Origin: Abditibacterium sp.
Lineage (GTDB): Bacteria > Armatimonadota > Abditibacteriia > Abditibacteriales > Abditibacteriaceae
Assembly: GCA_965199495.1 (NCBI GenBank)
Contig: CBDASK010000003.1
Coordinates: 1,632,001 to 1,696,000, forward strand
Direction: 5' to 3'
DNA: 64,000 nucleotides
A program made the position numbers and the translations under genes. This document shows positions 1,108-64,000 of the stretch, piece by piece. The stretch's first letter is position 1. Each line of letters begins with the position of its first letter. Below the pieces are notes generated by a model, which worked only from the letters and a program-made list of their open reading frames with translations, was not told where the DNA came from and made no database searches.

Positions 1108-2232
1108 ATGAAACACGTTTCGAGGCGAATTTTAGGTCGCGAACTTCTGCTGCTGATGTCACCGTTGTTGGCGGTGGGCGCGGTCGCATTTTTCTTCTGG
1201 TGGCGCGCACAAAGCGGCCCGCGCTTGCTGGAAACGCCGACGCCGGTTTCCAAAGTCTGGTTTCTGCCCGACAATCGCATCTTCGCCATCGGCTCGTCTG
1301 CGGTGAAAGGCAACACCAACGTGCCCACGCAACTTTATGTGTGGGACGCGCGTTCGGGCCAACTTTTAATCAGTCGAATGCACGATGTTCAAACCAGAGA
1401 TTCGTCGCTTTCGCCCGACGAAAAATTGTGGGTCTACAGCGTGGCTGCTCCCGCGACGGGCGCCGTCGTCGGCATGGAAGTGCGCAACGTGCGCGATTTT
1501 TCTCTGGTGCTGAAATCTCCCCTCACGCTTTCGTTAATCAACTGGAACGACGAGCGCGAATTGGAAGGTTATAATTCCAAAACCCGAAAATTCGAGCGCT
1601 ACTTCATAGACGAGAAAAATCATCGTTTTAATTACGTGGGATCGAATATGAAAAGCAAAGAGTGGCCGAAATCTTCGCCCGATGGGAAATGGAAAGTCGA
1701 ACGCGAATTTGGCCAAGAACACCGGTTCGATTATGACGATATTCGCTATTCCAACACACAGAATGTCTACTTTTATAAAAGGGAAATGATTTTTCGTCCG
1801 AGCAATCCTCAACTTAAAATTCGCCGAACATCGGGCAATTGGAACGCGACGCGTTGCACGCGCGATAGCCAAACGTTTCTGGGTATTGTCAATCTGCGGC
1901 CCTCCGAAATTAAGCGCGACGACATCGTGCGGTTCGATGCAGCCACCGGCACTTTTTCCAGCGTTCGATTGCAAAGCACCGATTACAACGATTGGTTCGA
2001 TGCGGAGTTTTCATCAGACGGGCGTTTTTTGGTGAGTTCGCGCGAACGGGGCCAAATCTGGGAAGTCTGGGACGCGCGTTCGGGCCAGCTTTTGCGCAGC
2101 GTGGGCAAAGCCGTAGATAAACCCGATTGGCTCGCCGACTATACGCCGCGCCTGTCGCCCGACGGCAAATTTTGGGTTCGCCCCACGCAACGCGGCGTCG
2201 AACTGTGGGACTTGGCGAAATTGGCGAATTGA
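1108..2232 (+). CDS. Membrane-anchored WD40/beta-propeller protein
   Basis: ATG at 1108, just after the upstream stop; one TM segment, then repeated VWDARSGQLL and (F/L)SPDG motifs. Confidence 0.75.
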   Translation: MKHVSRRILGRELLLLMSPLLAVGAVAFFFWWRAQSGPRLLETPTPVSKVWFLPDNRIFAIGSSAVKGNTNVPTQLYVWDARSGQLLISRMHDVQTRDSSLSPDEKLWVYSVAAPATGAVVGMEVRNVRDFSLVLKSPLTLSLINWNDERELEGYNSKTRKFERYFIDEKNHRFNYVGSNMKSKEWPKSSPDGKWKVEREFGQEHRFDYDDIRYSNTQNVYFYKREMIFRPSNPQLKIRRTSGNWNATRCTRDSQTFLGIVNLRPSEIKRDDIVRFDAATGTFSSVRLQSTDYNDWFDAEFSSDGRFLVSSRERGQIWEVWDARSGQLLRSVGKAVDKPDWLADYTPRLSPDGKFWVRPTQRGVELWDLAKLAN

Positions 2233-2240
2233 AACCAAAT

Positions 2241-3737
2241 TTAATTCGCGCGCCGCAGCACACCGAGCGCGAAAATCATCGCGCCGCCGCACAGCGCCAT
2301 CAATAATAGACAAAGTGCCGCTACGTCTGAAGCGATGCCCGCGTGCAAAAAGTTAAAAATCGGAATCGGTAAGGTATCGCCGCCCGGCCCGTGAACCAAA
2401 ACCGTGACCGTGAGTTCGCCCGCGCTCCACGCCCAAACCAAACCCCACGCTCCGGCGATGGCGCCGCGAAGTAGCGGCAACGCGATATGAGCAGCCACGC
2501 GCAACGGCGAGGCGCCCAGATTGGCGGCGGCCCATAACGATTCGGCGGGCAAGCGCGCCGTTGCGCCCCACAGAATTGCGATGGCGAGCGGCAAAAAACG
2601 CGCGCAATCGCCCCAAATTGTCATGCCGTAGGCGCTGTCATAAAGCGCGCCGGTCAATGGGCGATTGAACGCCTCGATTAAAGCCACGCCGATGACGACC
2701 GACGCCCACAAGCCCGGCGCGAGCGTCAAAGCCAAGGCGACATTGCGCACGCGCGAGGGCCAACTGCGCCACGACAGACAGAGCGCCAATGCCAGCGCCG
2801 CGCAAATCGTCGCGGACAATGTAGCGACGATGAGCGTGTTCCACAGCGCGTCGGTATTGGCGCCGAGGGTATCGGCAATGGAGCGCGCGTCTTCTAATTC
2901 GCTCGCGAATCGCCACCCCAAAAAGCCGGGCGAAATCAGAAATAACGGCGCCCAAACGATCAAACTTCGCGAACGCGCCGCGTTGGGTTCGCTGGCGGGC
3001 GCGCTCCACTGTGTGGCGATGCGCAGCGCGGGCCACAAAAAAAAGAGCGCCATCAACGGCACCGGCCACGCCGTCAAAGCCGCGCGCAAATTCGGGTCGC
3101 CCAAAGCGGTTGGGCTGTTGAGTTGGCGATAAATCTCGCTCGAAATCGTCGGATACGACAACAAATCGGGCGCGCCCATTTCCCACAAACAAAGCGCGCC
3201 TACCACGCCTGCGCTCGCCACAATCGCGGGCCAAATGCGACGGCCCAGCACGCCGCTCCACGCTTGAATTGAATTGCATAACGCGCGCGCGGCCTCTTCT
3301 TCTTCGCGCGGCAAAGCGGCCAACGCCGCCGCCGTCGCGAAAGCCACGACCGGGAAATAAACCAACGAAAGCGCGAGCGCGCACGCCCACAACGGGAAGC
3401 GATCCGGCCCGCCGAGGGAGAAAAACGGAGCCGCCGCCAACACCGCCGGAATGCCAAGCGGCAGCGCCGTCAGGGCCGCGAACAAAGCGCGAGGACGGCG
3501 CGGCCCGCGCGCGATGAGAAAACCCAACGGCACGCCGAGCAACGTCGCGGCGCACGCGGTCAAAACGCTTAAAACGAACGACGATGCGGCCAACCGAAAG
3601 ACCAGCGCGTTGAAAACCAGCGCGCGCGCATCGGGCACCCACAGGGCGTGCGCGTAGAGCAAGAGTAGCGGCGCCCACAGAGCGACAATAGCAGCGCCGC
3701 ACAGCGTAAGCGCGAGGCGCGAAGGGCGTCGAATCAC
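2241..3737 (-). CDS. Fe3+/thiamine-type ABC transporter permease (FbpB-like, duplicated TM domain)
   Basis: Highly hydrophobic with two EAA-like loops (EEEAARAL, LWAAANLGAS); start placed at GTG 3737, 7 nt after CATACT. Confidence 0.8.
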   Translation of the reverse strand: MIRRPSRLALTLCGAAIVALWAPLLLLYAHALWVPDARALVFNALVFRLAASSFVLSVLTACAATLLGVPLGFLIARGPRRPRALFAALTALPLGIPAVLAAAPFFSLGGPDRFPLWACALALSLVYFPVVAFATAAALAALPREEEEAARALCNSIQAWSGVLGRRIWPAIVASAGVVGALCLWEMGAPDLLSYPTISSEIYRQLNSPTALGDPNLRAALTAWPVPLMALFFLWPALRIATQWSAPASEPNAARSRSLIVWAPLFLISPGFLGWRFASELEDARSIADTLGANTDALWNTLIVATLSATICAALALALCLSWRSWPSRVRNVALALTLAPGLWASVVIGVALIEAFNRPLTGALYDSAYGMTIWGDCARFLPLAIAILWGATARLPAESLWAAANLGASPLRVAAHIALPLLRGAIAGAWGLVWAWSAGELTVTVLVHGPGGDTLPIPIFNFLHAGIASDVAALCLLLMALCGGAMIFALGVLRRAN

Positions 3738-3787
3738 GCGTTTTAGTATGGCGATTTCGCGCGTGGGTGAAACTCGATTCTGTTTCT

Positions 3788-3972
3788 CAGAAGTTGCGCC
3801 GTTGGCCATTGTTTGTCATTTCGAGCGAAGCCGAGAAATCTTGCGGCCCCGCGCCAGAGGAAGTGATGCATGGGTCTAAATGTGAAAACCGCTCGAATTG
3901 CGCTGCCGCGCGGTCGCAAGATTTCTCGGCTTCGCTCGAAATGACAAACAATGGCCAACGGCGCAACTTCTG
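3788..3972. repeat. Long palindromic element, family B (GTCATT...AATGAC type)
   Basis: About 58-bp perfect arms CAGAAGTTGCGCC...GTCATTTCGAGCGAAGCCGAGAAATCTTGCG and their reverse complement, between divergent genes. Confidence 0.9.
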
Positions 3973-4023
3973 TATTATTTCCCGTCTTCCGTCTCCCAAC
4001 TTCTGTATTCTTATAATCCCAAT

Positions 4024-4824
4024 ATGTCCCGCGAAAACCAACATCAACCGCAAGCTCTGCCCAACTCCGACATCGAGGCGCCCAAATCGCAGGTCAAAGC
4101 CGCCGCGCGCAAAACAGAAGATTTCGGGTTGCTCAACCCCGCTCGCCCGACGGCGTTGCAGCAGGATTTCACCGAATCCGACACCTGGCGCGTGATGCGC
4201 ATTCAGGCCGAGTTCGTCCATTCGTTCGAGACGATGAGCCGCATCGGCCCGGCTATCGCGCTTTTTGGTTCGGCGCGTTTACAGGAAAACACGCCCTACA
4301 ACGACGCCGCCCGCGACGTGGCTGCTCGTTTGGTGCGCAACGGCTGGGCCGTGATGACCGGCGGCGGGCCGGGCATTATGCAGGCGGGCAATCGCGGCGC
4401 GCGCGAGGCCGAACAGCCGGGCGAAAAGATGTCCATCGGATTGAACATCGAACTGCCGTTTGAACAGCATCTCAACCCGTATATTGACGTTGGAATCAAT
4501 TTTCGCTACTTTTTCACGCGCAAAGTCAACTTCGTCAAATACGCGTCGGGCTTCGTCATTTTCCCCGGCGGCTTCGGCACCTTGGACGAGTTTTTCGAGT
4601 CGCTGACTTTGGTGCAAACCCACAAAATTCAAAACTTCCCGATTGTTTTGTTCGGCACCAGTTATTGGGGCGGCTTGCTCGATTGGATTCGCGAAACCTT
4701 GGTTTCGCACGGCACCATCTTGGAATCGGATTTAGATTTGATTCACCTGACTGACGACCCGGCAGAAGTCATCAGCTACATTTTCGAGAATACCCGCAAT
4801 GTGCGCAACCCATCAAGCGAATAA
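4024..4824 (+). CDS. LOG family (TIGR00730-type) nucleotide phosphoribohydrolase
   Basis: FGSAR, TGGGPGIM and PGGFGTLDE motifs; ATG 4024 lies 6 nt after TATAAT. Confidence 0.92.
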   Translation: MSRENQHQPQALPNSDIEAPKSQVKAAARKTEDFGLLNPARPTALQQDFTESDTWRVMRIQAEFVHSFETMSRIGPAIALFGSARLQENTPYNDAARDVAARLVRNGWAVMTGGGPGIMQAGNRGAREAEQPGEKMSIGLNIELPFEQHLNPYIDVGINFRYFFTRKVNFVKYASGFVIFPGGFGTLDEFFESLTLVQTHKIQNFPIVLFGTSYWGGLLDWIRETLVSHGTILESDLDLIHLTDDPAEVISYIFENTRNVRNPSSE

Positions 4825-4861
4825 AGCGAATTTATGCGATGGACTAAGTGTTGTTTCCTAT

Positions 4862-4900
4862 AATCCGTTTAAAGCCACTTCAAGCGGCTTTAAACGGATT
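4862..4900. terminator. Hairpin downstream of the LOG gene (terminator or operator)
   Basis: AATCCGTTTAAAGCC-N9-GGCTTTAAACGGATT. Confidence 0.55.
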
Positions 4901-4936
4901 GAAGCGGGCTGGCGATTGAAGTAAAATCTAATCGCT

Positions 4937-5269
4937 ATGGAAATGCTTTTAACCATTGAACAGGCGGCTTTGCGGTTACAACTACACCGCGACACGGTGA
5001 GAAAACAACTCAAGCGCGGCGAGTTGCGTGGCGTGAAGCGCGGGCGAGTTTGGCGCGTGCCAGAAAGCGCGCTTGGAGAAGCGGCGCCAACGCCAGCCAC
5101 GCCGCCCGTCCCGACGACGCCAGAAGCGAGGGTGGGACAACTGGACGACTTTTTAAAAAGCGTCGAAGTGCTGACGCAACGCATGGAAGCAGCGGGCTTT
5201 AAAGGGGTAAATGGAGCGGAATTAGTGCGCGAAGGACGAGAGGAAAGGGAGCGTCAAATTGGCGAGTAA
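4937..5269 (+). CDS. Excisionase-like HTH protein, putative antitoxin
   Basis: LLTIEQAALRLQLHRDTVRKQLKRGELRGVKRGRVWRV (HTH_17-like); C-terminal ELVREGREER typical of VapB-like antitoxins; overlaps the PIN gene. Confidence 0.8.
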   Translation: MEMLLTIEQAALRLQLHRDTVRKQLKRGELRGVKRGRVWRVPESALGEAAPTPATPPVPTTPEARVGQLDDFLKSVEVLTQRMEAAGFKGVNGAELVREGREERERQIGE

Positions 5270-5783
5270 TCCAAGTTCCGATCAATTAACCGTTGCACTT
5301 GGGAGCGCTACAAGCGTCGTCATGGACGCCAGCTTAGCGATTGACGCCATTGCAGGGGAGACAGCGCGCAGGGCGCGGGCACTCCGTTTTCTCACAATAT
5401 GCAACGCGCACGGCGTGGCTCTGATTGTTCCACCAACTTTTCCCAGCGAAGCCGACACCGCAATTCGCCGGATCATCGCACGCGGACAAATGCCCGCAGC
5501 CGATATGCCGTTAATCTTTGGCATGCTCGATAAGTTGCCGCTCGCTATGGCGCTCGATGCCGCAGAGCTTGAAGCCGTCAGGCAACGCGCGCGGCAAATC
5601 GCGGAAGAGTTGGCACTGACGCCGGTTTACGATTCGACTTACGCCGCCTTGGCCGAGGCTCGCGGATGCGACTTTTGGACGGCGGACGAGAAGTTTGCCA
5701 ATGCCGCAAAACAGTTGCGACGCCAGCCGGATGGAACGATGGCGCCGACACTTTCAAACGTGCGATTTATCGGCGATTTCTAA
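5259..5783 (+). CDS. PIN-domain (VapC-like) toxin
   Basis: VVMDAS ... E ... YDSTYAALAE ... WTADEK acidic PIN motifs. Confidence 0.85.
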   Translation: MASNPSSDQLTVALGSATSVVMDASLAIDAIAGETARRARALRFLTICNAHGVALIVPPTFPSEADTAIRRIIARGQMPAADMPLIFGMLDKLPLAMALDAAELEAVRQRARQIAEELALTPVYDSTYAALAEARGCDFWTADEKFANAAKQLRRQPDGTMAPTLSNVRFIGDF

Positions 5784-5898
5784 ATCCTAATGAGCCGAGA
5801 CATTTATCGCAACAAAACACCACGAGAAAATTGGGCAACACGATACTCGTTCGGCAAACGAAGGGCGATTAAGGTTTGTGTCCCCTGCTCTTGCGTAA

Positions 5899-5987
5899 AT
5901 TTGATTCACCTGACCGACGACTCGGCAGAAGTCATCAGCTACATTTTCGAGAACACCCGCAACGTGCGCAACCCATCGAACGAATGA
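5899..5987 (+). pseudogene. Orphan duplicate of the last ~29 codons of the LOG gene
   Basis: Encodes LIHLTDDSAEVISYIFENTRNVRNPSNE*, versus LIHLTDDPAEVISYIFENTRNVRNPSSE* in the intact gene. Confidence 0.85.
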
Positions 5988-6014
5988 GGTTGCTGAGCGT
6001 GTTGGAAACTTGCG

Positions 6015-6560
6015 ATGAAACCTAATTTTAAAACTTTCGGTTGCTTTTTTCTGCTCGCGATTCTCGCTTTGTCCATCGTGTTATTTTTCACGATGGGCGA
6101 CGAATATCCTAATTACACGCGTCAAAGGCCCGCGTTCAATGACATTGTCGGCACTTGGGTTTTAACGAACGAAACGGTTCAAGAGATGAAGAGGTTGAAC
6201 GTTTATAAGTCAGCCAATACGTCAATAGAAATTAGGAGCGATGGCACATTCAAAGCTACCGATTTGCCCGCTGCCGCTTATTCTCAGAGCGGCTTCGGAT
6301 GGGGTTCTGATGGAGGTGGAGGCAAATTAGCATCTCCATCCGGCAAATGGTCATTGGGCCAAGAGAAATTCCAGCCATTTCATGATGCGGATGAAGAGGA
6401 GATAGAGGTCTGGAACTTATATCTTCCTTTCGATAATTTATCTGGTTACTTGGCACCTCAGGGCTATCCGATTTTGTTAAATCAATCGCCTCCATACATC
6501 ATCCATATTCCCTTTGGAGATGAAGATGCCAGTGAACACATTGACTTTGTAAAGCAGTAA
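6015..6560 (+). CDS. Membrane-anchored hypothetical protein, AT-richer than host
   Basis: 181-aa ORF, N-terminal TM segment, DIVGTW motif of beta-barrel-like extracytoplasmic proteins. Confidence 0.7.
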   Translation: MKPNFKTFGCFFLLAILALSIVLFFTMGDEYPNYTRQRPAFNDIVGTWVLTNETVQEMKRLNVYKSANTSIEIRSDGTFKATDLPAAAYSQSGFGWGSDGGGGKLASPSGKWSLGQEKFQPFHDADEEEIEVWNLYLPFDNLSGYLAPQGYPILLNQSPPYIIHIPFGDEDASEHIDFVKQ

Positions 6561-6564
6561 ATCG

Positions 6565-7575
6565 CTAATTCTCAAACGCCCGCGCCAACGTTTCGACGTT
6601 GCGCGTTACGTCGAATTCGCGTTCGACAACTTGCCGCGCGTTGCAGCCACGGCGCCGCGTTTCGTCAGCATTTTCCCAAACGCGCGTGATGGTTTGCGCC
6701 AATTCGTTCGCGTTATTGGGCGCGCACAGCCAGCCGGTTTGGTCGTTGATCAAATCACTCGCGCTGCCCGCCGTTGTGGTGACGACTGGCAAACCTAACG
6801 CGGCACCTTCGAGTAAAACGTTGGCCAAACCGTCGCGGTCGCCATTCGCGTCAATGCGCGAGGGCAAAACCAGACAATTGGCCCAATCGCGCATCGTTGC
6901 GATGACTTGCGCGTGCGGCAAAGCGCCGCGCGCGATGGACGCGTCGAATTGCGCGCGCATCGGGCCGTCGCCGATGATTTGAACTTGGGCATCTAAAATT
7001 TTGGCGGCTTCGATTAAATCGGGCCAGCCTTTTTTCTGGATCAATCGTCCGACGCCCAACAAACGCATCGGGCCAACTTTCCATTCGCGAAACGGATAAT
7101 TTTCCAGAGGGATTCCGTGCGGCGCGTAAATCACGTTAGCGCCGTATTTTTTCAATTCGGTTTCGCCTGAGCGCGTGCAAACCGTCGCCCATTTGGCCGC
7201 ATTTAGCTTCGAGCCTAAATCGCCGCCGCTTACCCATAAATCGTGGGCGTGCGCGGCGAAACTCCACGGCAAACCGGCTTGATTCGCCACTGCGCGCGCG
7301 ATGTCGGCGACGTGATTGGCCCACGCGGCGTGGACGTGGCTGATGCTGGCGCGCGCGAGTTGCGGCGCCAACTTTTCGCCGGTTGCGCGCCAGAAATAAT
7401 CGGCGCCGCGCAACTTCAAGGCGCGCGGCAAAAGCGGAATGGGTTGCGCGCCTTCGCCCGCGTTGAGCGCCCAGATTTCGATGATTAATCCGCGCGCGCG
7501 CAATGCGTCAATCTCGCGCGCCAGAAAGGTTTCGGTCGTCGAGGGAAAAGTGTCGAACAGATACGCAATTTTCAT
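6565..7575 (-). CDS. Glycosyltransferase family 4 (WcaL-like)
   Basis: FPSTTETF, VGRLIQKKG and DGLANVLLEG motifs. Confidence 0.9.
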   Translation of the reverse strand: MKIAYLFDTFPSTTETFLAREIDALRARGLIIEIWALNAGEGAQPIPLLPRALKLRGADYFWRATGEKLAPQLARASISHVHAAWANHVADIARAVANQAGLPWSFAAHAHDLWVSGGDLGSKLNAAKWATVCTRSGETELKKYGANVIYAPHGIPLENYPFREWKVGPMRLLGVGRLIQKKGWPDLIEAAKILDAQVQIIGDGPMRAQFDASIARGALPHAQVIATMRDWANCLVLPSRIDANGDRDGLANVLLEGAALGLPVVTTTAGSASDLINDQTGWLCAPNNANELAQTITRVWENADETRRRGCNARQVVEREFDVTRNVETLARAFEN

Positions 7576-8708
7576 GCGCTTGGCTCCATTTGGTCGAAGC
7601 GCTCGAAATCAAAGCCGGGATTGTCGAATTCCCAGTAGACATCGAGCGTCGCGCGCGCGGCGCGTTCCCAAGTGAACTCGCGCGCGTATTGGCGGCCCGT
7701 CGCGCCCAGTTTTTGACGCAAATTCTCGTCGCCCAACAAACGCGCGATTGAATCGGCGATGGCGCGCGGGTTGCGCGGCGGCGGACACAACGCGTGCTGC
7801 TCCAAATTTGGCAACGGCACCGCACTCGATGCGACAACAGGCGCGCCGCACGCCAAGGCTTCTAAAACGGGCAAACCGAATCCTTCGCATAATGACGGAA
7901 AACAGAAAACTTCGCACGCGCTTAAAAGCGCGGGCACATCTGCGCGCGGCACGAAACCCAATTGTCGGATGCCGCTTAGCAACGCCTCGGATTGCGGCCA
8001 CGGCGCGATGCCGCCCGCGACGATTAAAGGCAACGCATCGGGCAAAAGTTTTAACGCGCGCAATAAGTTGGGCAAATTTTTCTTCGGCTCGAAGTTGCCC
8101 AGATAAAACAAAAACTGGGGCGGCAAATCGTATTTGGCGCGCACATTCGCGATGGCGTCGGGCGAAACCGGCGCGCTCCATTCGGGCGCGACGCCCAGAG
8201 GAATCACGCGCACATCGGCATGGGGCGCGCGGCGCAAAACGGCCTCGCGCGTGCGCGGCGTGCTGACCAAAACGCGCGCGGCGCGGCGCAAACTCTGCGG
8301 CATAAGGGCGCGATAATGCGCGCGATTGGCGCGGCGGGCGAAGTGCGGCTGATCCAGAGCGATTAAATCTTGAACCGTCAGAATCGTCGGGACGGGGCTG
8401 AGCAACGGCATCACGTAATTCCACGCGTGCAGCAAATCGGCGTTGGTGGCGCGTAATAAGCGCGGCAGTTCGAGCTGTTGCCACGCGATACGCCGCGCCT
8501 TTTGCGCGCTCGTAAACGGCAGACGATGCCACGTCCAACGCGGGCCGTCTTGCCAGTGCGCGGGCGCATCAGCGGGCACGCACACCAAATAATGATTGCG
8601 CCCGTCCAAGGCGCGCAGATGCGCGAAGGTTTCCCACAACGCGGTCTCGATGCCGCCGCGTCTGCCGTCCGGTTGGTGTAACGCCGTCGCGTCGAAAACG
8701 ATTCTCAT
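7572..8708 (-). CDS. Glycosyltransferase family 4
   Basis: GNFEPKKN and EGFGLPVLEALACG motifs; ATGA overlap with the downstream GT. Confidence 0.92.
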   Translation of the reverse strand: MRIVFDATALHQPDGRRGGIETALWETFAHLRALDGRNHYLVCVPADAPAHWQDGPRWTWHRLPFTSAQKARRIAWQQLELPRLLRATNADLLHAWNYVMPLLSPVPTILTVQDLIALDQPHFARRANRAHYRALMPQSLRRAARVLVSTPRTREAVLRRAPHADVRVIPLGVAPEWSAPVSPDAIANVRAKYDLPPQFLFYLGNFEPKKNLPNLLRALKLLPDALPLIVAGGIAPWPQSEALLSGIRQLGFVPRADVPALLSACEVFCFPSLCEGFGLPVLEALACGAPVVASSAVPLPNLEQHALCPPPRNPRAIADSIARLLGDENLRQKLGATGRQYAREFTWERAARATLDVYWEFDNPGFDFERFDQMEPSA

Positions 8709-8722
8709 GGGGAAATGGGCGG

Positions 8723-9030
8723 ATATATTTTAGCCATAAAAACGCAGAATTCACCAAAGGCACAAAAAATCGGGCGAACAGTATTTATTAATGCGGCTTC
8801 ACAGAAGTTTCTGCTCAATTGTAGGGTCACCGGCTTGCCGTGACCGCGAACGTTCCATTGCTTGCAAATCATTGCTTTTGCCAGGAGCATTACGTTTGCG
8901 GTCACGGCAAGCCGGTGACCCTACAATTGAGCAGAAACTTCTGTGAAGCCGCATTAAGGAAAGTTGGACAACCTATTTTTGAATCTTTTGTGCCTTTGGT
9001 GAATTCTGCGTTTTTGTGGCTAAAATATAT
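8723..9030. repeat. Long palindromic element, family A (9-mer unit arms), carrying a nested element
   Basis: ATATATTTTAGCCATAAAAACGCAGAATTCACCAAAGGCACAAAA and its near-perfect reverse complement ending at 9030. Confidence 0.88.
8788..8957. repeat. Nested palindromic element, family C (GTAGGG REP-like core, TTAA ends)
   Basis: 60-bp perfect arms TTAATGCGGC...TGTAGGGTCACCGGCTTGCCGTGACCGC; each arm has an internal small hairpin GGTCAC..GTGACC. Confidence 0.9.
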
Positions 9031-9103
9031 TGAAAAGATGAACAGCTACCTCAAAAAATTTGAGGCGACTTTGGTGCTGAATAGTCTAAGCACTCCCCAA
9101 AGT

Positions 9104-9817: not shown

Positions 9818-9826
9818 ATTCAAATT

Positions 9827-9978
9827 GCCACAGAGTTCACAGAGAACGCACAGAGGGACACAGAAAAGAACGAAGAAATCAAAAAGTAGAAGAACCAAAT
9901 TTTATAGTTTTGCCTATATAAATTGATTTCTTCGTTCTTTTCTGTGTCCCTCTGTGCGTTCTCTGTGAACTCTGTGGC
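9827..9978. repeat. Long palindromic element, family A
   Basis: GCCACAGAGTTCACAGAGAACGCACAGAGGGACACAGAAAAGAACGAAGAAATCAA with a perfect complementary arm. Confidence 0.92.
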
Positions 9979-9992
9979 TAAAATAAAATCTC

Positions 9993-55082: not shown

Positions 55083-55127
55083 TGTCGTTTGCGACTTCTA
55101 TCTCCTGACTTCCAACTTCTAAAGAAA

Positions 55128-56009
55128 ATGGCTTCACTTCGCGACATCAAACGCAAAATCCGCGTTGTTAAAAATATCGCCCAGATCACGCAGGCGATGA
55201 AAATGGTGGCGGCGGCCAAACTGCGCCGCGTCCAAGACCGCGTGCAAAAGGGCAAACCCTACGCGCAGACGATGGCCGAACTCGTCGGCACTCTCGCGCC
55301 CAGCGTCAAAGATTTTTCGCATCCTTTGCTGGAAGTGCGCGATGTGCAGCGCGTCACCGTCGTAGTTATCGCGGGCGACAAAGGATTGTGCGGCGCTTAT
55401 AACTCGAATATCTTGCGCTTGGGCCAGCGTTTCGTGGACGAAAAGTTCGCGCAATATGGCCGCGAGAATGTGCGTCTGCTCACGGTTGGCAAAAAAGCGG
55501 GCGAATATTTTCGCAAGCGCGGTTACGAGCCAGCGCGTCACTTCGCGGGCATTGGGCCGGACACGGCTTACGAAGAGATTCGCGCGATTTCCAATGAACT
55601 GACGGGCACGTTTAGCAGTGGCGCGACCGACGAAGTTTTCATCTGTTACACCGAATTCGTGACGGCTTTGACGCAGCGCCCCGAAACCATCAAGTTTCTG
55701 CCCATCGAGCCGCCCTCGGCGGGCGTTGAAGAAACGGAATCGGCGGGCACGACCGATTTCATTTTCGAGCCGAAGATTGACGAATTGTTGTCCAAGCTGT
55801 TGCCGCGCTATGTCGAAACGCGGATTTACCAGTTGCTCATGGAAGCCACGGCGTCCGAGTTCGGCGCGCGCATGACGGCGATGAGCAACGCAACCAAGAA
55901 CGCCAACGAACAGATCGACAGCCTGACGCTAATTTATAATCGCACGCGTCAGGCGAATATCACCAAGGAACTGCTTGATATTATCGGCGGCGCGGAAGCG
56001 TTGAATTAG
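55128..56009 (+). CDS. atpG: F1 ATP synthase subunit gamma
   Basis: MASLRDIKRKI, DKGLCGAYN and RQANITKEL motifs. Confidence 0.97.
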   Translation: MASLRDIKRKIRVVKNIAQITQAMKMVAAAKLRRVQDRVQKGKPYAQTMAELVGTLAPSVKDFSHPLLEVRDVQRVTVVVIAGDKGLCGAYNSNILRLGQRFVDEKFAQYGRENVRLLTVGKKAGEYFRKRGYEPARHFAGIGPDTAYEEIRAISNELTGTFSSGATDEVFICYTEFVTALTQRPETIKFLPIEPPSAGVEETESAGTTDFIFEPKIDELLSKLLPRYVETRIYQLLMEATASEFGARMTAMSNATKNANEQIDSLTLIYNRTRQANITKELLDIIGGAEALN

Positions 56010-56021
56010 CGATTCAGAAAA

Positions 56022-56060
56022 CGAAAAGGGCATCAGAAAAATTATCTGATGCCCTTTTCG
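56022..56060 (+). terminator. Terminator closing the atp operon
   Basis: CGAAAAGGGCATCAGA-loop-TCTGATGCCCTTTTCG. Confidence 0.85.
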
Positions 56061-56298
56061 CGTTGGAGACTGGTAAGACTTGGGCAACGCCGTTTGCTTA
56101 CACGCCCAAGAAATGTGCAAAAATTGCTCTCTAATGTGATTTAGGCAAAAATATGAAGGCAACTCAATTATTCATTAAAAAAATGGTGTTTTTTGGAGAT
56201 TTCTAAAAATTGGCAAAGTCCCTGTTCGCTTAAATGAATTCAATTAATTAATGGTAGGCTAACGATAAAACTTCTAAACTGGCACAAAGCGCCGCTAT

Positions 56299-59200
56299 GT
56301 GCCGTATCGGGAGGTAAGCCAAATTAATCTATCCGAAAAACCGTTACAACAAAATTTGGCGCGTCGCACGCGTCAAATCGGCGCGTTGCGTCGTGTTAGC
56401 GAGGCGTTGTTTTCGGGTTACGGCGCCAATTCAATCGCGCAGACACTGGAAGTCGCCGTCGAAATTGTGGACGCGAACGCGGGCGCGATCTTGTTTTATG
56501 AAGCGCCCACCGATGCGCTGATTTTCCGTTGCGCTGTCGGGCCGCGCGCCGACGCGCTCACCGGCACCACGATAGCCGCCGCGCAGGGCGTCGCCGGACA
56601 GGTTTTGCGCACCGCGTTGCCCGAACTGACTCGCCGCGCAGGAGAAGATGAAAACGCGTTGGTTGATCGCTTTCTGGGCGAAGAGCAAAACGCCGAAGAT
56701 GATATAACTCTGTTGACGTTGCCGCTCAAACGCGCATCGGGCGAGGCGCTGGGATTGATGCAATTGCTGTGGGTTGGGCAAAGCGAAATTCCCGGCCAAT
56801 GCGATGTCGAAGTTCTCCAAATTTTGTGCGCGGCGCTTTCGTCGGCGCTGGAAACCGAGCGTTTGAAGCAAGAGGCGCAACGCGCGGAAATCGTCTCGAT
56901 TATCGGCGATATTTCGCATGACATTAAAAATATGCTGACCCCGATTCAGTCGGGCGTGTGGACGTTGGAGCCACTGTTAGACCAGCTTTTTGAGGGATTG
57001 AGCGAAGTTCAGTTGGGTTTGAATGGGCGTGCGGCACAAAATCAGATCACCGAAGTCGCGGAGGCGGTGCGGGGCAATTACAGTTGGATTTTGCAGAACG
57101 TTGACGCTTCGTGCGAGCAACTCATGGCGCGCACGCGCGAAATCGCCGACGCGGTCAAGGGCGAATTGGCAGCGCCCGTGTTCGAAGTCACCGATCTCAA
57201 CGAGGTCGTTTCCCATGTCGCGCGCCCTTTATTTTTGTTGGCCGAGAAAACTAACGTCCAGTTGCATTTGGAGTTAGACCGCGATTTGCCGCACGCCGAA
57301 TTCGACCGCAAACAGCTTTATAACGCGATTTATAATCTGGTCAACAACGCGATTCCCGAAACGCCAGAGGGCGGTAGCGTGACGATTCGCACGCTCGCGC
57401 CCGCACCCGGCGAAGAGACTTTGATGCTCGAAGTCGAGGACACCGGCGGCGGAATGCCCGAAAATGTGCGCGCGCGTTTGTTCACCGACCAAGCGATTTC
57501 GACCAAAGAGGGCGGCACCGGTCTGGGCACGCGCATCGTGGCGGGCGTGGTCAAACGGCATCAGGGACAAATTACGGTTCACAGCGAAAGCGGGCGCGGC
57601 ACGCGCTTTTCGATTCGGTTGCCGTTGCGCCAAATGCCGGTGTTCGATGCAGCCACGGCGGCGTTGCCGGTGCGACTGCACAATTTGCCCGCGCCTTCCA
57701 CGTCGTTCGTCGGGCGCGGGTTGGAGCGCGCGCGGGCGCGCGAACTGTTGCAAAATGGGCGTTTGGTTTCGCTGATCGGCATCGGCGGGACGGGCAAAAC
57801 GCGGTTGGCGTTGCAGGTCGCGGCGGAAGTTTTGCCGCAATTCGAGGGCGGCGTGTGGTTGGTTTCGCTCGCCGCCCTCAACGAGGCACCGCGCGTGGCT
57901 GCTGCCATCGCCGCCGCTCTGGGCGTGAGCGACGCGGCGGGGCGCAACTTGGAAGCGATTTTGTGCGACTTTTTGCGCCCCAAACAATTGCTGTTGGTGC
58001 TGGACAATTTCGAGCAAGTTCTGGAAGCCTCGCCCTTAGTCGCACGCTTACTCGAAGAGTGCGAGAATTTGAAAATTCTCGTCACCAGCCGCGCGCCCCT
58101 CGGCGTGCGCGGCGAACACGAATTGCCCGTCGAGCCTTTGGGGTTGCCCGCGCTGGAACATCTGGCCGCCACGCCCCTGCCCGCGCAACTTCACGCCCTC
58201 GCCGACTGCGAGGCGGTCGCGCTGTTTTGCCAGCGCGCCAGTCAGGTGCGGCCCGACTTCGAGTTGTGCGCCGAAAACGCGCGCGATGTGGCGCGGCTTT
58301 GCACGCGGCTCGACGGTTTGCCTTTGGCGATTGAACTGGCGGCGGCGCGCGTCAAAATGTTGGCGCCGCACGCGATTTTGTCTCATCTGGAAAAGCACCT
58401 GGCGCTACCGGGCAAAGGCCCGCAGGACGCGCCGCGCCGTCACCAGAGTTTGCAGGCCGCGCTCGATTGGAGCACCGATTTGTTGGCGCCCGCCGAGCAA
58501 ATTTTGCTGCGGCGCGCGATGATTTTTGAAGGCGGCTTTGGCGCGGAAGCCGCCCGCGTCGTGGCCGCAACCGACGAGTTAGGGTTGGATGTCTGGCACG
58601 GTTTGGAATTGCTGTGCGAGAAAAGTCTGCTGCGCGCGGCGCCCCAAAGCGACGGCTCGATGTGGTTTTTCGCGCTGCAAACCGTGCGCGATTACGGGCA
58701 GGAAAAGCTGGCCGAAGCGGGCGAACTCGAAACGATGGGAGCGCGACACGCCGCGCATTATTCGGCAGTCGCGCAGGCCGCGCAAAGGCTTTTGACCACA
58801 GAAACCGACGCGCCCACGCCCTTTGATTTGCCGCTCGCGAGCGCGTCGAAGGCGCAGTGGCACGTCTGGCGCGAACGCGAATACGAGAATTTGCGCGCTG
58901 CTCTCGATTGGTTTTTGGAACATGAAAATCAGGGACAGCACGAAGCGTTGCGCATGGCGGTGGCTCTGCGCGACGTGTGGCTTGGCCGATTGTGGACGGA
59001 GCGGCGCGAGGCGTTGCAACGCGCGCTCGCCCAAAGCGCGGACGCGCCCGACGAACTGCGGCTCCAGGCGATGTTATTCGCCGGGGATTTAGCCGTTTTG
59101 CAAAGCGATTTGCCGCGCGCGCAAGAGTTCGGGCAACAGGGTTTGGCTTTGAGCGAAAAATTGGAATCGGGCTGGGCACAGGCGCGCGCGCTGGGAATTT

Positions 59201-59997
59201 TGGCGAATGTGGCGCTGGAAAACGACGATTTCGCGCGGGCGCGCGCGCTGCACGAACAGAGTCTGAATCTGCACCGCGAAGAGGAAAATAACGGCGCGAT
59301 TCCCTGGAGTTTGTTTTTTCTGGGCGAAGTCGCCAGACGCGAAGGCGACCCCGAACGCGCGCGCGATTGTTACGAGCAAAGCCTGACTCACTTCCGCGCA
59401 ATCGAGGACAGAGAAGGCATTGCGACCGCGCTTTATCAATTGAGCCGCGCGATTTATGACGCCCAACAGCCCGCGCCCGCACGCGAAATGTTGGAAGAAA
59501 GTCTGGCGATTTTCAGCGAATTGGCGCATCACAGCGGCATCGCGTGGACGCGCGGTTTTCTGGGACAGATGGCGGCGGACGCGGGCGATTTCGAGCTGGC
59601 GCGCGAGCAAATCGAGCGAAGTCTGGAAATGTGGCGCGCGCTGGGCAGTCGCGCGGAGGTTCACGCGGCCTTGCGCGCGCTGGGCGAAATCGCGCTTCGG
59701 ACGAGCGATTGGAGCGCGATGCGCGAATTATTAGGCGAACTGTTGGACGATTTGTCGGCGCCCGAACACGGCGCGATGGCGCGCGAAATTTTGGACGAAT
59801 TCGCACGTTTGGCGATGGAGCAGGGCGAGGCCGAACACGCCGCCTGTTTATTGGGCGCCGCGTGGGGCGCCCAGCCCGCCGACTCCGCGCTCGCCCGACA
59901 AGTTCGCGGCGCTTTAGATGAAGAAAATTGGCAGCAATTGTTGCAGCGCGGCATCCGAGCCACGCCGACGTTGCGCGGGCGGGAGGAGCGGGAATGA
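56299..59997 (+). CDS. GAF-histidine kinase fused to a STAND (NB-ARC-like) ATPase and TPR repeats
   Basis: SHDIKN H-box, NLVNNAI, DTGGGM and GGTGLG; then NLP...[33 protein letters not shown] and TPRs; start approximate. Confidence 0.88.
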
Positions 59998-60854
59998 AGA
60001 GTTATCGCGTGCGATTTAGGCGAATAAATTCGCAGCCACGATTAAGTGTCGGCCTTCGCCGACACGAACATTTACTTTGTCGGCGAAGGCCGACACTTAA
60101 TCGTGGCTGCGAATTTATTCGCCTAACTCCCGTCCACACCCCAAAAAGCGCGTTCACCCTGATCGAAATTTTGGTCGTCATCGCAATTATCGCCATCCTC
60201 GCGGCGATCCTGTTTCCGGTTTTCGCGCGCGCAAGGGAAAACGCGCGCCGCACGTCGTGCCTGAGCAATCTGCGCCAAATCGGGCTGGGATTGATGCAAT
60301 ACACGCAGGATTATGACGAACAAAATTCGCGCAGTTGGTATGTTTCGTCGGGCGCCTCCAGCGCGAGCGGCAGTTACAAATGGATGGACGCGATTTATCC
60401 CTACGTCAAAAGCGAGCAAATTTTCAATTGTCCCAGCCACACTTTGCCGGTCAACATTGCGCCCAGCACCAGCACTTTCGATAGTTACAAATTCCGCGAC
60501 GGCACGCGCTGGGGCAGTTACGCCGCCAACGTGACTTATTTTGGCGACGGCAATCTCAATCCGTTCCTCTCGCGCAACGTAGCGTCGTGGGAATCGCCTT
60601 CGACGACGGTTTATGTCGTAGACGGCGTCGGGCGCTACGAAATCGCGTGGGAAACCGGCAATCCGCCCATCAGCACGACGAACCCGCGTTATATCAGCGT
60701 CGGCGGTTTCCCGACCGTCTTCGAGCGCCATCTGGAAACCAGCGTGGTTTTGTTTTGCGACGGTCACGCCAAAGCTCAGAAGTTGGAAAAGCTCACCGTT
60801 GTCGGCGAGGATGGTCGCTACGCGCCTTTCACCGTGGGCGCCGATCCCGATTGA
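59994..60854 (+). CDS. Prepilin-type DUF1559 / H-X9-DG protein with a palindrome-extended leader
   Basis: GGAGGAG RBS and ATGA overlap at 59994; [10 protein letters not shown] and [15 protein letters not shown] motifs. Confidence 0.9.
60016..60126. repeat. Palindromic element, family F, inside coding sequence
   Basis: TTAGGCGAATAAATTCGCAGCCACGATTAAGTGTCGGCCTTCGCCGACA-loop-perfect complement; 111 bp. Confidence 0.92.
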
Positions 60855-60889
60855 AAATATAGGATTGAAAGCGACCTAAATCAAAAATC

Positions 60890-61699
60890 ATGCAATCCCA
60901 TTTTGCCCTCGTTTTTCTCGCCCTTATTCTCTGCGCCGCGCGCGCAAACTGTGATGAAATCGCGCCCTTCGTCGGCGATTTCGAGAGCGGCGATTTGTCG
61001 CAGTGGGCGAGTAAAGAAGCCGCGCGCGACGATTCGATTCAAATCGTCACCGACCCGGTGCGAAGCGGAAATTACGCCGCGAAATTCACCGTGCGCGCGG
61101 GCGAGCGCGTGAGCAATGGCAATCGCGCCGAAATTATTCATGATAACGGCGACCGCGCGGGCAGCGAAGTTTGGGTTCGCTGGAGTTTTCTGATTCCCCG
61201 TGATTTCGTGGATGTCGAATGGAAACCGAAATTTTGGCAGTGCATCGGCCAATGGCACGACCAACCTGACGAAAAACTCGGCGAAACGTGGGCTGATTTC
61301 CCCGCGCATTCGCCTTCGATTGCGGTTTATTACACCTCAAAAAACGGCGCGCCAGCGATTGAAATTTGGAGCGGCACTTACGCCAAAGACGAAATTCAAA
61401 AAGTCGTAGCACGCGCGCCCATCGTCAAGGGCCAGTGGCAAGACGTAATGTTTCACATTCGCTGGTCGCAGGGCGACGATGGTTTTGTCGAACCATTTTT
61501 AAACGGCGCGCCTTTGATCGCGCCCGACACAACGGAACATCGCGCGTGCGGGCCGAATATGTGGAATGGCGCGTCGCATTATCTCAAAATCGGGCTTTAT
61601 CGCAATAGCGAAATCCTCGATACCAACAGCGTTTATTTCGATGAAGTTCGCAGTGGCCCAACGCGCGATTCGGTCGCGCCCAGCGAGGCGCGACCATGA
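60890..61699 (+). CDS. Secreted polysaccharide lyase-like (heparin lyase I-type jelly roll) protein
   Basis: DFESG, NRAEI, IGQWH and YLKIGLYR motifs. Confidence 0.78.
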   Translation: MQSHFALVFLALILCAARANCDEIAPFVGDFESGDLSQWASKEAARDDSIQIVTDPVRSGNYAAKFTVRAGERVSNGNRAEIIHDNGDRAGSEVWVRWSFLIPRDFVDVEWKPKFWQCIGQWHDQPDEKLGETWADFPAHSPSIAVYYTSKNGAPAIEIWSGTYAKDEIQKVVARAPIVKGQWQDVMFHIRWSQGDDGFVEPFLNGAPLIAPDTTEHRACGPNMWNGASHYLKIGLYRNSEILDTNSVYFDEVRSGPTRDSVAPSEARP

Positions 61700-62805
61700 A
61701 TCGTCCGGTTAATTTTGGCGTGATCGGCGTCGGCGGCATGGGCGCGGCGCACGCGCATTTCGTCCATGAATTGGAAGAAACGCGTTTAATCGCCGTCGCC
61801 GACTGCGACGTGGCTGCTGCCGGGCGCGTGGCACGCGAGAGAAATTGCCGCGCGTTTACCGACGGCGCCGAATTAATTGATAGCGGCGATATTGACGCGG
61901 TAATAATTGCCACGCCGCACCCGCTTCATGTCGAGCTGACGCGTTATGCCGCCGCGCGCGGCATTCACGTTTTGTGCGAAAAACCGCTCGCCGCGTCGGT
62001 CGCCGATGCCGATTTGATGATTCAAAGTTGCCGCGAAAACGGCGTTTTGCTGGGCACGGTTTTTCAACAACGCACCGAGCCGTTGCGCCGCACCATGAAA
62101 CGTCTGGTCGGCGAATTGGGCGCAATCTATCGCGTTTCGCTGTCGGTCTGTTACTATCGCCCGCAATCCTATTATGATTCGGCAGAGTGGCGCGGCACTT
62201 GGCGCGGCGAGGGCGGCGGCATTTTGATGCAGGCCGCGCACGCCTTAGATCAGTTGGCGTGGCTGGCCGGACTGCCGGAGCGCGTCCAGACGTTGTCGTT
62301 GACGCGTTTACACCAAATCGCAACCGAGAACACCTCCGTTTCAATATTGGATTATGGCGGCGGCAAAGCCGGTTGGTTTTACATTTCGACGGCGGACACG
62401 TTGGAAGACGAGCGCATCGAAATTAGCGGCGAACGCGGCGCGTTGGTGTGGCAGGCGGGTCAGTTGCGCCAGTTGCAATTGCCACAACCGCTTTCGCGGC
62501 ATCTGCACAGCGCGCCCACAATGTTCGAGCCGTTGCGCGGAAATTGGCGCGATGTGGAAATTGACGCGGATTTGCGAAACGAACCGCAAGGCCACCGCGA
62601 AATCGTGCGCGCCTTCGCGCGGGCCGTGCGCCATAACGACGCCAGTTTAATGTTCGCGTCGGGCGAAGATGGTTTGCGTTCGCTCGAATTAGCCAACGCG
62701 ATGATGCTCGCCGGACAATGCAGCCACGCCGTCGAGTTGCCGCTGGATCGCGCGTGTTATCAAGCGATGTTGGACGAATTATGCGCGCGAGAGTTTGATT
62801 TATGA
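61696..62805 (+). CDS. Gfo/Idh/MocA family oxidoreductase
   Basis: GVGGMG, IATPHPLH, CEKPLA and EGGGIL.QAAH.LD motifs. Confidence 0.93.
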   Translation: MNRPVNFGVIGVGGMGAAHAHFVHELEETRLIAVADCDVAAAGRVARERNCRAFTDGAELIDSGDIDAVIIATPHPLHVELTRYAAARGIHVLCEKPLAASVADADLMIQSCRENGVLLGTVFQQRTEPLRRTMKRLVGELGAIYRVSLSVCYYRPQSYYDSAEWRGTWRGEGGGILMQAAHALDQLAWLAGLPERVQTLSLTRLHQIATENTSVSILDYGGGKAGWFYISTADTLEDERIEISGERGALVWQAGQLRQLQLPQPLSRHLHSAPTMFEPLRGNWRDVEIDADLRNEPQGHREIVRAFARAVRHNDASLMFASGEDGLRSLELANAMMLAGQCSHAVELPLDRACYQAMLDELCAREFDL

Positions 62806-62884
62806 TGGCGCGTGTCGGGCAAATATAGCGTTGAAAATTTGCTCGATTTTAAAGGAGGCACTGAAGCGTTGAATTAAGAATATA

Positions 62885-62931
62885 AACACAAAAAGAACGC
62901 GAGGTTTTTGACTTCGCGCTCTTTTTGTGTT
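62885..62931. terminator. Bidirectional terminator-like hairpin
   Basis: AACACAAAAAGAACGCGAGG-loop-CTTCGCGCTCTTTTTGTGTT. Confidence 0.65.
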
Positions 62932-62970
62932 AAATAGAGAAGAGTAATTGTGATTCTAAAGGAGATTTAA

Positions 62971-63210
62971 ATGTTATTGCGCTTTCTCAAAAAGAAGAGC
63001 TTTTCAAACACAACCGGCGATAGTTACGTTTTTGGTTCGATCATGATGAGCTTTTGCATCTTCATGTTTCTGAGCGATTACGTAGACAAAGGAACGGCCA
63101 TTTGTCTCGCTTTGACTTTTGGGGATATTCTATTTACTTTGATTGGCCTTCCATTTTTGCTCATCCGAATTTATCGAGAAAAACGAGAAAAAGAAGCGCG
63201 AAAATTATAG
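62971..63210 (+). CDS. Small AT-rich two-TM hypothetical protein
   Basis: Strong AAGGAG RBS, two hydrophobic segments, basic tail. Confidence 0.65.
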   Translation: MLLRFLKKKSFSNTTGDSYVFGSIMMSFCIFMFLSDYVDKGTAICLALTFGDILFTLIGLPFLLIRIYREKREKEARKL

Positions 63211-64000
63211 TCGTTTTTTCGCCGCTTCGACCGTATTTTGCAGCAGCATCGCGACCGTCATCGGGCCGACGCCGCCGACGCGGGGCGTCATCCATTTGGC
63301 GACGCTCGCGACTTCGTCGTCTACGTCCGAGATAATTTTTTTGCCTTCGCCGCGCGTCAAGCCACCGCCAACGACGGCGGCGCCGGGTTTGATCATATCG
63401 GCTTTGATGAAGTTGGGCGCGCCCGCCGCCGCGACCACAATATCGCCTTGGCGCGTGTAATCGGCCAAGTTTTTCACGCCGGTATGCACGACAGTCACCG
63501 CCGCGTTGCAGCCGGGACGCTTGAGCGCCAATAACAGCGCGAGCGGGCGGCCAATCGTCAGGCCGCGCCCGACGATGACGACGTGGCTGCCTTCGACGGG
63601 CACATCGAATTCGTGCAACAATTCGACGATGCCGTGCGGAGTGCAGGGCAACGCGCCCGGCGCGCCCATGACCAGACGGCCCAAATTCACCGGATGCAAA
63701 CCGTCGGCGTCTTTAGCCGGGTCAATCGCCAACAATGCGGCTTCTTCGTCCAAACCTTTGGGCAGCGGCAACTGAACGATGTAAGCCGAAACTTGCGGAT
63801 CGGCGTTGAACTTTTCGATTTGCGCGATGACTTGCTCCTGCGTGGCATCGGCGGGTAAGAGCGCGTGAATCGAGGCGATGCCCGCTTCTTCGCAGGCTTT
63901 GATTTTGGCGCCGACATAAGTCGCCGAAGCCGGATCGTCGCCGACTAAAATCGTGCCCAGTCCGGGATTAATACCGCGTTGTTTCAGTTCGGTAACTTCG
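63205..64000 (-). CDS. folD: Bifunctional methylenetetrahydrofolate dehydrogenase/cyclohydrolase (5' part outside window)
   Basis: KDADGLHP.NLG, PCTP.GI and TPRVGGVGPMT motifs. Confidence 0.95.
   Translation of the reverse strand, partial: EVTELKQRGINPGLGTILVGDDPASATYVGAKIKACEEAGIASIHALLPADATQEQVIAQIEKFNADPQVSAYIVQLPLPKGLDEEAALLAIDPAKDADGLHPVNLGRLVMGAPGALPCTPHGIVELLHEFDVPVEGSHVVIVGRGLTIGRPLALLLALKRPGCNAAVTVVHTGVKNLADYTRQGDIVVAAAGAPNFIKADMIKPGAAVVGGGLTRGEGKKIISDVDDEVASVAKWMTPRVGGVGPMTVAMLLQNTVEAAKKRL

Follow-up and report, generated by a model that had tools for sequence, protein, structure and literature searches.

A highly iterated asymmetric word in the chromosome of an Abditibacterium species and its possible role in DNA uptake

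The chromosome of Abditibacterium sp. (assembly GCA_965199495.1) carries on both strands a short non-palindromic word, CGVCGTGGCTGY, which raises the question of what keeps such a sequence highly iterated and mostly within genes. The stretch analysed here, 64,000 nucleotides long (the window, G000:C3:1632001-1696000), holds copies from 1440 to 63590 and samples a chromosome-wide set. A preliminary description of the window had singled out the 9-mer CGTGGCTGC and proposed an undescribed uptake-sequence dialect or, alternatively, a methylation or nucleoid-protein site analogous to the highly iterated palindrome HIP1. Several pieces of evidence make it fairly probable that the word is a signal of the uptake-sequence type, subject to drive through natural transformation and read by orientation. 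The source genome of the window (G000) measures 4.81 Mb in three contigs (C1-C3, C3 being the chromosome) and is 95% complete; its GC content is 55.8%, and 53-59% per 4 kb within the window.

Consensus and copy number of the word

The 26 copies of CGTGGCTGC first reported, split 14:12 between strands, are all found at their exact coordinates, and the estimate of about one copy expected by chance agrees with 100 dinucleotide shuffles of the window (mean 0.99, maximum 7). The enrichment of the 9-mer is real, but it is a sub-word: the full word is CGVCGTGGCTGY, mostly followed by W, and the CGV flank is present at 19 of the 26 sites. Further out, the flanks are GC-rich at -6..-1 and +18..+21, also around the 231 non-coding sites of the chromosome. 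The 26 copies probably do not form one set either, as those at 60032 and 60102 are arms of an inverted repeat resembling a repetitive extragenic palindrome (REP).

On C3 (4.72 Mb), CGVCGTGGCT occurs 2,799 times (0.59/kb, about one per 1.7 kb), and the most frequent 10-, 11- and 12-mers of the genome are CGCCGTGGCT, CGCCGTGGCTG and CGCCGTGGCTGC (1,374, 1,051 and 690 copies). The 690 copies of the perfect 12-mer compare with only 0-26 copies for one-letter variants at nine of the 12 positions, positions 3, 11 and 12 being looser. The genome-wide count against a Markov expectation gives 1,783 copies of CGTGGCTGC versus 130 (order 4) or 496 (order 5), the latter being too high because the word itself inflates the order-5 model. 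The strands of the 9-mer are balanced (863:917).

With a home-made gene model (83.8% coverage, some genes missed), 2,556 of the 2,799 sites (91%) lie wholly inside genes, 1,418 in the sense and 1,138 in the antisense direction; 231 are non-coding and 12 fall at edges. Three within-gene synonymous shuffles retain 127-132 coding copies of CGVCGTGGCT versus 2,555 observed (~20-fold), and 89-94 copies of CGTGGCTGC versus 1,610. Both sense (1,417 versus ~67) and antisense copies (1,138 versus ~64) are enriched, and 2,555 of 5,780 synonymous opportunities (44%) are filled. Dicodon resampling, a null that absorbs the bias of the word itself, gives 626-691 copies in two runs and leaves a ~4-fold excess. 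The synonymous shuffles rule out a peptide or codon artefact, as had been surmised, and GCT and GCA are indeed uncommon (0.10 and 0.06 of alanine codons). Several reading frames are used, as claimed, but with a strong bias: 1,202 of the 2,556 coding sites encode x-[A/G/D]-V-A, 833 x-A-T-[A/P/S], 265 S-H-x, 161 x-W-L, 55 R-R-G and 40 x-P-R-R. An RNA family was also discarded, with no Rfam match in the window and enrichment of sense and antisense copies alike.

Origin, spacing and relatives of the word

The word arose by point mutation. When 205 sites in 168 orthologs are compared with sampled DNA from congeners lacking the motif, 182 show no indel in the alignment, as do 2,684 of 2,860 control windows, which rules out an insertion element as the origin. 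The word itself stands at two of the 182 aligned positions, and site residues are slightly less conserved than controls in these congeners (0.53 versus 0.61). It is retained in the sister species G011 (88% amino-acid identity), which keeps 46 of 67 sites, and 39 of 46 where the residues are unchanged, versus a neutral expectation of ~0.41 derived from 74% four-fold-site identity (P = 9e-10). Identity over 74 sites is 93% inside the word and 85% around it. Word-encodable tripeptides are inflated (571 versus 409 in 323 aligned orthologs), with reversed controls at 197 versus 217. The same substitution origin, conservation and tripeptide pattern are described for the uptake signal sequences (USS) of Pasteurellaceae and the DNA uptake sequences (DUS) of Neisseriaceae in the portions available of PMC2817400 and PMC1626085.

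The predicted depletion in recently acquired DNA is pronounced. C1, plasmid-like by eye, holds no site versus 14.6 expected, and C2, phage-like by eye, two versus 38.3. The largest gaps correspond to an integrative element after tRNA-Asn (one site versus 22.2 expected), a defence island, a prophage beside an integrase, polysaccharide clusters and a CRISPR region; other islands hold 20 sites versus 82 and 19 versus 46, island limits being partly drawn from the word gaps and gene roles, the integrase excepted, read by eye from protein starts.

No strand skew is seen in 48 bins of 100 kb on C3; the cumulative strand walk has a range of 35 versus 68 in permutations and is flatter than 1,997 of 2,000 of them. 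Strong replichore skew had been put forward as the sign of Chi or of the FtsK-orienting polar sequences (KOPS), but its absence is a weak criterion here, since GC skew is slight along this chromosome and genes show no bias in orientation; the replichores being poorly marked, it weighs more against KOPS than against Chi. What counts against Chi is that no RecBCD, AddAB or AdnAB was found in the 95% complete genome of G000, where PF12705 matches only an island gene and a Dna2-like gene, and a congener AddA finds only PcrA (E 3.5e-8). To note, the very weak GC skew and lack of gene-orientation bias extend over the whole chromosome, pointing to unusual replication or a shuffled assembly.

A further clue is a spacing that operates strand by strand. 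Below 500 bp, same-strand pairs reach only 0.08-0.33 of expectation; the ratio is 0.48 at 500-700 bp, 0.74 at 700-1,000 bp and 1.0 from 1.5 kb. Opposite-strand pairs stay at ~1 at all distances, except for an excess under 30 bp. Among the 473 pairs at 50-500 bp, only 90 are same-strand (P = 5e-44), and five control words, one too rare to judge, display no repulsion. With distance to the next same-strand site, occupancy of synonymous opportunities climbs from 0.08 to 0.60; it is flat at 0.43-0.50 up to 3 kb for opposite-strand neighbours. Neighbours under 60 bp are inverted in 79 of 83 cases, and 14 of 16 intergenic plus/minus hairpins have a gene end less than 100 bp away, a count made without a random control. 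At 30-700 bp in G011, eight of 36 pairs are same-strand. Slippage between long direct repeats was rejected as the cause, since the same-strand depletion does not follow shared length in any regular way (0.14 and 0.35 at 8 bp or less, 0.25 and 0.30 at 9-11 bp, 0.03 and 0.30 at 12 bp or more).

A USS control was assembled from 72 metagenome loci (L164-L235) with a USS inverted pair, of which 27 were dropped (16 redundant, eight short, three of low density). The 45 loci kept (674 kb) contain 516 AAGTGCGGT sites and are assumed to be from Pasteurellaceae on the basis of the word and of 35-46% GC. At 50-300 bp, 12 of 47 pairs are same-strand (P = 0.001); once close dyads are removed, the count is five of 31. 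Pasteurellaceae-type USS therefore exhibit same-strand avoidance only, over ~300-500 bp versus ~1 kb for the G000 word; since the control shows the same pattern, true uptake sequences appear to share strand-wise spacing, at shorter range. A literature search found no such rule, although older USS-spacing papers may contain it, and the USS uptake model has no orientation term in the available part of PMC7811141.

CGVCGTGGCTG is abundant in three of 201 genomes of the phylum, G000 (2,113 copies), G011 (1,776) and G004 (720), which form one clade on the ComEA tree (97/99); the others hold 0-134 copies, close to the reversed controls there. De novo counts in samples of 7-185 kb from the other 26 family genomes uncover different words: TCGAGTACTCGA in G066, G164 and G209, GAGTACTC in G131, GCAAGTACTTGC in G014, CAAAGTACTTTG in G018, and a dyad of AGTACGGTCGA in G017. 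Six of these seven genomes use AGTACT-core palindromes, and VRAGTACTYB reaches 2,564-3,346 copies per whole genome in the six, and 0-364 in the other 25 of 31. To note, VRAGTACTYB is the signal of genera g3 and g6 and is rare (0-40 copies) in genomes of g1 and g5. In the samples, these words stand in and between open reading frames (ORFs), with 8-62 copies in ORFs versus 0-1.3 in shuffles; words are underrepresented in coding DNA in the G017, G066 and G014 samples and in the G004 hairpins, and most copies in G017 and G004 are in intergenic dyads. Pairs under 300 bp are again scarce in G066 (10 versus 39 expected), G131 (two versus 14) and, weakly, G014 (six versus 10), and G017 has no pairs of dyads under 1 kb versus 11 expected. 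Ten of the 27 family genomes are word-bearing; none was seen in 16, the samples of G210, G053 and G005 being as small as 9-26 kb. G001 is not counted among the ten: its word CACAAAAAATGA (128 copies in 169 kb) shows no same-strand avoidance. Written as TTCCACAAAAAATGAAG, again with 128 copies in 169 kb and no same-strand avoidance, the G001 word is often found in close inverted pairs (L122-L124, L144-L155). Candidate words in G003, G006, G007, G009 and G010 were discarded as local repeats or weak. Our impression is that the dialects are akin through an AG..AC..CG skeleton.

G004 differs in form: ACGTGGCTGGTGTC is present there in 1,393 copies, most of which belong to intergenic hairpins that start with GTAG, and the genome has eight Y1_Tnp matches; the hairpin arm containing the core has eight copies in G000. 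About 700 such GTAG-started hairpins (e.g. L005:4754-4800) hold a CGTGGCTG core in both orientations. The hairpin may be a REP that has acquired the signal, or the signal may have come from the hairpin as its older source.

Proposed drive through natural transformation and competing explanations

The machinery expected for uptake is encoded in G000. The region C3:861-881 kb contains pilB, pilT, pilC and pilD with four prepilin-like and two large genes, and the genome also encodes secretins, an intact three-domain ComEC, ComEA and DprA. The competence genes suggested for inspection are present, but the ComP-like pilin sought with them is not matched by PF16732, a profile that matched no control either. 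comEC is split or carries stops in G012, G211, G005 and word-bearing G014. In G012, a motif-free complete genome that has lost competence recently, comEC is split by ~28 kb and comEA is a 62-aa frame (C1:1340262-1370491).

Several proteins were considered as readers of the word. ComEA was set aside as the discriminating factor, its helix-hairpin-helix domain being alike in word-bearing and word-free genomes (20 of 28 loci gave usable protein), as were the minor pilins of the pil operon, which have orthologs in both. The 615-aa minor pilin (C3:868625-870448; L316:7655-9445), only 41% identical in G004, is disfavoured as well. It reaches 60% identity in other records, which suggests exchange or fast change. 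The best receptor lead, a weak one, is a basic DUF1559 protein (C3:2782760-2783359; net charge +16, isoelectric point 9.9), which stands out among 47 prepilin-motif ORFs (~2 spurious). Its five close homologs carry charges of +8 to +12, and 149 distant homologs have a median of 0. The predicted model is a confident type IV pilin fold (pLDDT 90.5), with Z scores of 5.2-6.2 to PilA4, PilV, EpsG and ComP; a Foldseek search returned no match at E 0.001. The distribution of this putative receptor fits two genomes with a strong, conserved word and decay in G004, but this amounts to one event. No role of DUF1559 in competence appeared among the literature matches listed.

A mechanism can be proposed from these elements. 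DNA would enter via the type IV pilus, ComEA, ComEC and DprA, for which the genes were found, and a sequence-specific factor would prefer word-bearing fragments. Through biased uptake and recombination, point mutations that create the word would then spread at every position where the protein can accommodate them, while newly acquired DNA starts without it, as seen in the contigs and islands above. The factor would read orientation, such that a second same-strand copy within ~1 kb adds little and a copy on the other strand counts fully. Strand-wise spacing would hence suggest a step that has a direction or acts on single-stranded DNA, for example loading onto one of the two strands, transport through ComEC or the loading of RecA, and not orientation-blind binding alone. 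The palindromes and dyads of relatives may serve both strands at one site.

Several observations weigh against this interpretation. ComEC matches in 27 and ComEA in 25 of the 27 family genomes, motif-free ones included; because motif-free relatives have them too, the competence genes do not discriminate. The ComP_DUS profile (PF16732) has no match, though it matched no control either. The basic pilin resembles ComP (Z 5.2, root-mean-square deviation 3.4, 98 aligned residues) no better than other pilins, and among the 27 genomes its ortholog occurs only in G011, none being found in G004 or the palindrome genomes. Sites shared with G004 are kept in 12 of 31 cases, no better than neutral (~0.33). 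In G000 the word is denser in coding DNA (0.65/kb) than in other DNA (0.30/kb), opposite to DUS and USS, and the palindromic dialects resemble HIP1 more than DUS. No 5'/3' asymmetry was found around sites, either of weak sites or of divergence. Finally, two USS within 100 bp give no higher outer-membrane uptake in Haemophilus influenzae, according to the available part of PMC7811141, a result that any uptake step reading orientation has to accommodate.

Comparison with known systems nevertheless favours an uptake-type signal. Pasteurellaceae USS have the core AAGTGCGGT, Hin and Apl types (PMC1626085, PMC2817400, PMC7811141) and ComN/PpdA as predicted receptor (PMC12616744). The G000 word shares with them a density of about one copy per 1-2 kb, the lack of orientation bias, a large excess of perfect over one-mismatch copies, the point-mutation origin, frame bias, tripeptide inflation and loss in foreign DNA, as well as weak AT/GC flanking preferences, same-strand-only avoidance and even spacing with close inverted pairs. 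In contrast to USS, it is denser in genes than between them, has a longer avoidance range and has relatives that use palindromes. DUS, in eight dialects read by ComP (PMC3630211, PMC2397512), are likewise 10-12-mers with clade dialects, inverted pairs at gene ends and overlapping dyads, as in S. muelleri. Unlike them, the Abditibacteriaceae words differ far more from each other (non-palindromic, palindromic, a 24-bp dyad), are patchy, lack a ComP match (in the search without a matching control) and form few terminator pairs in G000. Sequence comparison reveals no core shared with DUS (CTG..A) or USS (ANNNGCGGT) as given in the consulted portions of PMC3630211 and PMC1626085. The uptake-sequence proposal stands as the best-supported reading, with nearly every genomic hallmark of DUS and USS present, but the word is no dialect of either, because its sequence is unrelated and its phylum another. 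An independent uptake-type system with its own dialects is best supported, its likeness resting on genomic hallmarks.

Part of this picture would also follow from a HIP1-like mark, in which an enzyme, either a methyltransferase or a nickase, labels one strand of the word and steers mismatch repair or recombination across ~1 kb. Marking of one strand predicts the observed spacing, since each strand would then need its own sites and palindromes would serve both. A 10-12-bp asymmetric site is, however, long for methyltransferase-type enzymes. The palindromes of six relatives speak for this explanation, and MutS is present in five of five genomes tested; HIP1 and related HIPs of cyanobacteria are described as substitution-born, conserved, highly iterated, varying in related genomes, tied to methyltransferases and proposed to be linked to transformation (PMC13756078; PMC5861425; bioRxiv 2024.09.10.611283), and the words of g6 and g3 are palindromes like them. 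The G000 and G011 word differs from HIP1 in being asymmetric and longer, and perhaps in its short-range avoidance as opposed to the tens-of-kb periodicity of HIPs. A HIP1-like mark is unlikely on balance: the methylation proposal gains no support from the one candidate, among ~10 in G000, that was followed family-wide. This 269-aa orphan N6/N4 methyltransferase, shared by three word-bearing genomes, recurs with 56-88% identity as an ortholog in 21 of 26 others, with and without the word alike, and was not found in word-bearing G004; without co-variation with the word, it was rejected as the cognate enzyme. No C5 enzyme is matched in word-bearing G014, and USS, of unmethylated type, share the spacing. 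Even spacing, presence in genes and lower density in foreign DNA would also fit a binding site, maintained by selection and not by transformation, for a protein that organises the chromosome or translocates along it (nucleoid protein, SMC, helicase loader), or an orientation-blind drive whose close direct copies are purged by a deleting enzyme; in one reported case, the DNA between two copies of HIP1 was deleted (PMC13756078). Either is distinctly unlikely, as patchy presence and unrelated words within one family poorly fit an essential site, the same-strand depletion does not grow steadily with shared length, and the control words show no repulsion.

Chi and KOPS are asymmetric, orientation-dependent and poorer in foreign DNA, like the G000 word, which differs in having no strand skew at any scale and in being much longer and more enriched; its 44% of filled opportunities is far above known Chi enrichment. 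A signal of the Chi kind, recognised at two-ended breaks by a helicase-nuclease moving along the DNA, would produce orientation-dependent spacing, and a candidate reader exists: a 1,421-aa Dna2-like (Bad-like) enzyme (C3:4111365-4115630, minus strand; L050:6366-10631), a nuclease-superfamily 1B helicase with a CxxC-x5-C cluster, encoded where congeners have AddAB. Genus genomes without the word have AddA in ten of ten cases and the Dna2-like gene in none, and the three with the word show the reverse; Bad unwinds ~900 bp per run (PMC7430649). This explanation is nonetheless very unlikely. The contrast counts as one event because the three word-bearing genomes form one clade, and AddAB loss or the Dna2-like gene, a perfect correlate within the genus, fails as a cause outside it: G016 has the enzyme (45%) but no word in 140 kb, and the six palindrome genomes have no match to the enzyme. 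It is split in G011 by one TGA, which may be an assembly error, and USS show the same spacing without Chi. AddA matches come only from one subclade of the genus, and 17 of the 27 family genomes have none; most of the family may resect breaks without AddAB or RecBCD. Directional starts of another kind of transfer, be it a gene transfer agent packaging site or dispersed nick sites of a relaxase or a REP-associated tyrosine transposase (RAYT), would equally give same-strand saturation, and the G004 hairpin arms with their Y1_Tnp matches lend this idea some appeal. GTAG-type REPs with RAYT are extragenic hairpins spread by copying, a description that the G004 hairpin fits, and G000 has separate REP-like families. 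The G000 word, in contrast, is single, intragenic and mutation-born, without indels, the hairpin arm occurs only eight times, and G017 has dyads but no Y1_Tnp match, making such a transfer start most improbable, with no search aimed at transfer agents made. The Ssn/NTS hairpins differ in the same way, NTS being 2% intragenic and clustered (PMC11893778).

An uptake-sequence-type signal would have broader consequences. Uptake sequences are described as confined to Pasteurellaceae and Neisseriaceae (PMC1626085); if the reading is true, a third, unrelated family, in the Armatimonadota/Abditibacteriota, carries self-recognition tags. It is possible, if doubtful, that the full scheme holds: a third independent sequence-specific uptake system, with dialects from an asymmetric 12-mer to perfect palindromes bridging DUS/USS and HIP1, a recruited DUF1559 pilin as receptor, and uptake sequences, USS included, counted strand by strand via a directional or single-strand recognition step absent from current models. 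The pilin would then provide a first role for the huge DUF1559 family of unknown function. Gains, losses and palindromic dialects among close relatives offer natural contrasts for the origin of self-recognition in DNA exchange and for whether HIP1 is the same phenomenon, while the same-strand-only rule can be checked at little cost for any highly iterated word from genome data and gives a sharp prediction on the reading step. On the practical side, these soil bacteria, which are difficult to handle, could become transformable with the help of the word, which also serves as a marker of recently acquired DNA. No paper was found for the G000 word strings as whole words, a search that left the AGTACT dialect strings outside, nor one joining "DNA uptake sequence" and "Abditibacter", and nothing on Abditibacteriaceae appeared among the matches listed.

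Sites and repeats in the window

The window contains 39 CGVCGTGGCT sites. The 18 on the plus strand (span 4314..63588) start at 4314, 5411, 10334, 16873, 19473, 27926, 30347, 36150, 38559, 41661, 43826, 44956, 48232, 50263, 52413, 53768, 61806 and 63579. The low coordinates of the 21 on the minus strand (span 2682..62731) are 2682, 5095, 6645, 12574, 15185, 17749, 20002, 23477, 26051, 29922, 31415, 35397, 38551, 43739, 47471, 49571, 52722, 55844, 57651, 59958 and 62722. Five weaker variants (span 1440..57902) consist of CGTGGCTGC without the CGV flank, at 1440, 31391, 34703 and 57894 on the plus strand and 2491 on the minus strand.

Two arrangements illustrate the inverted pairs. At 38549..38568 (C3:1670551), two full sites, minus then plus with an offset of 8, overlap in an intergenic region, and this pair would serve both orientations at one place. 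At 31391..31424, a plus copy is followed by a minus copy 22 bp away within a coding sequence.

The sequence at 60016..60126, read directly, is a perfect 49-bp intergenic inverted repeat with a loop of 13 nt. The copies at 60032 and 60102, both lacking the CGV flank, sit in its arms; the repeat is a REP-like element and probably not part of the dispersed set. It lies just upstream of a DUF1559 prepilin gene and has related elements in G004. G000 has ~42 DUF1559 prepilin genes, two of them in the window (11343-12137, minus strand, and 60150-60854, plus strand). Other intergenic repeats of C3 fall into at least three families, each with 90-150 copies (e.g. at 25287, 182552, 83237 and 18676), namely GTCATTTCGA..CCGAGAAATC, which is like Ssn-linked hairpins, GTAGAGAC-started REPs, and CTTCGACTTCGTT.

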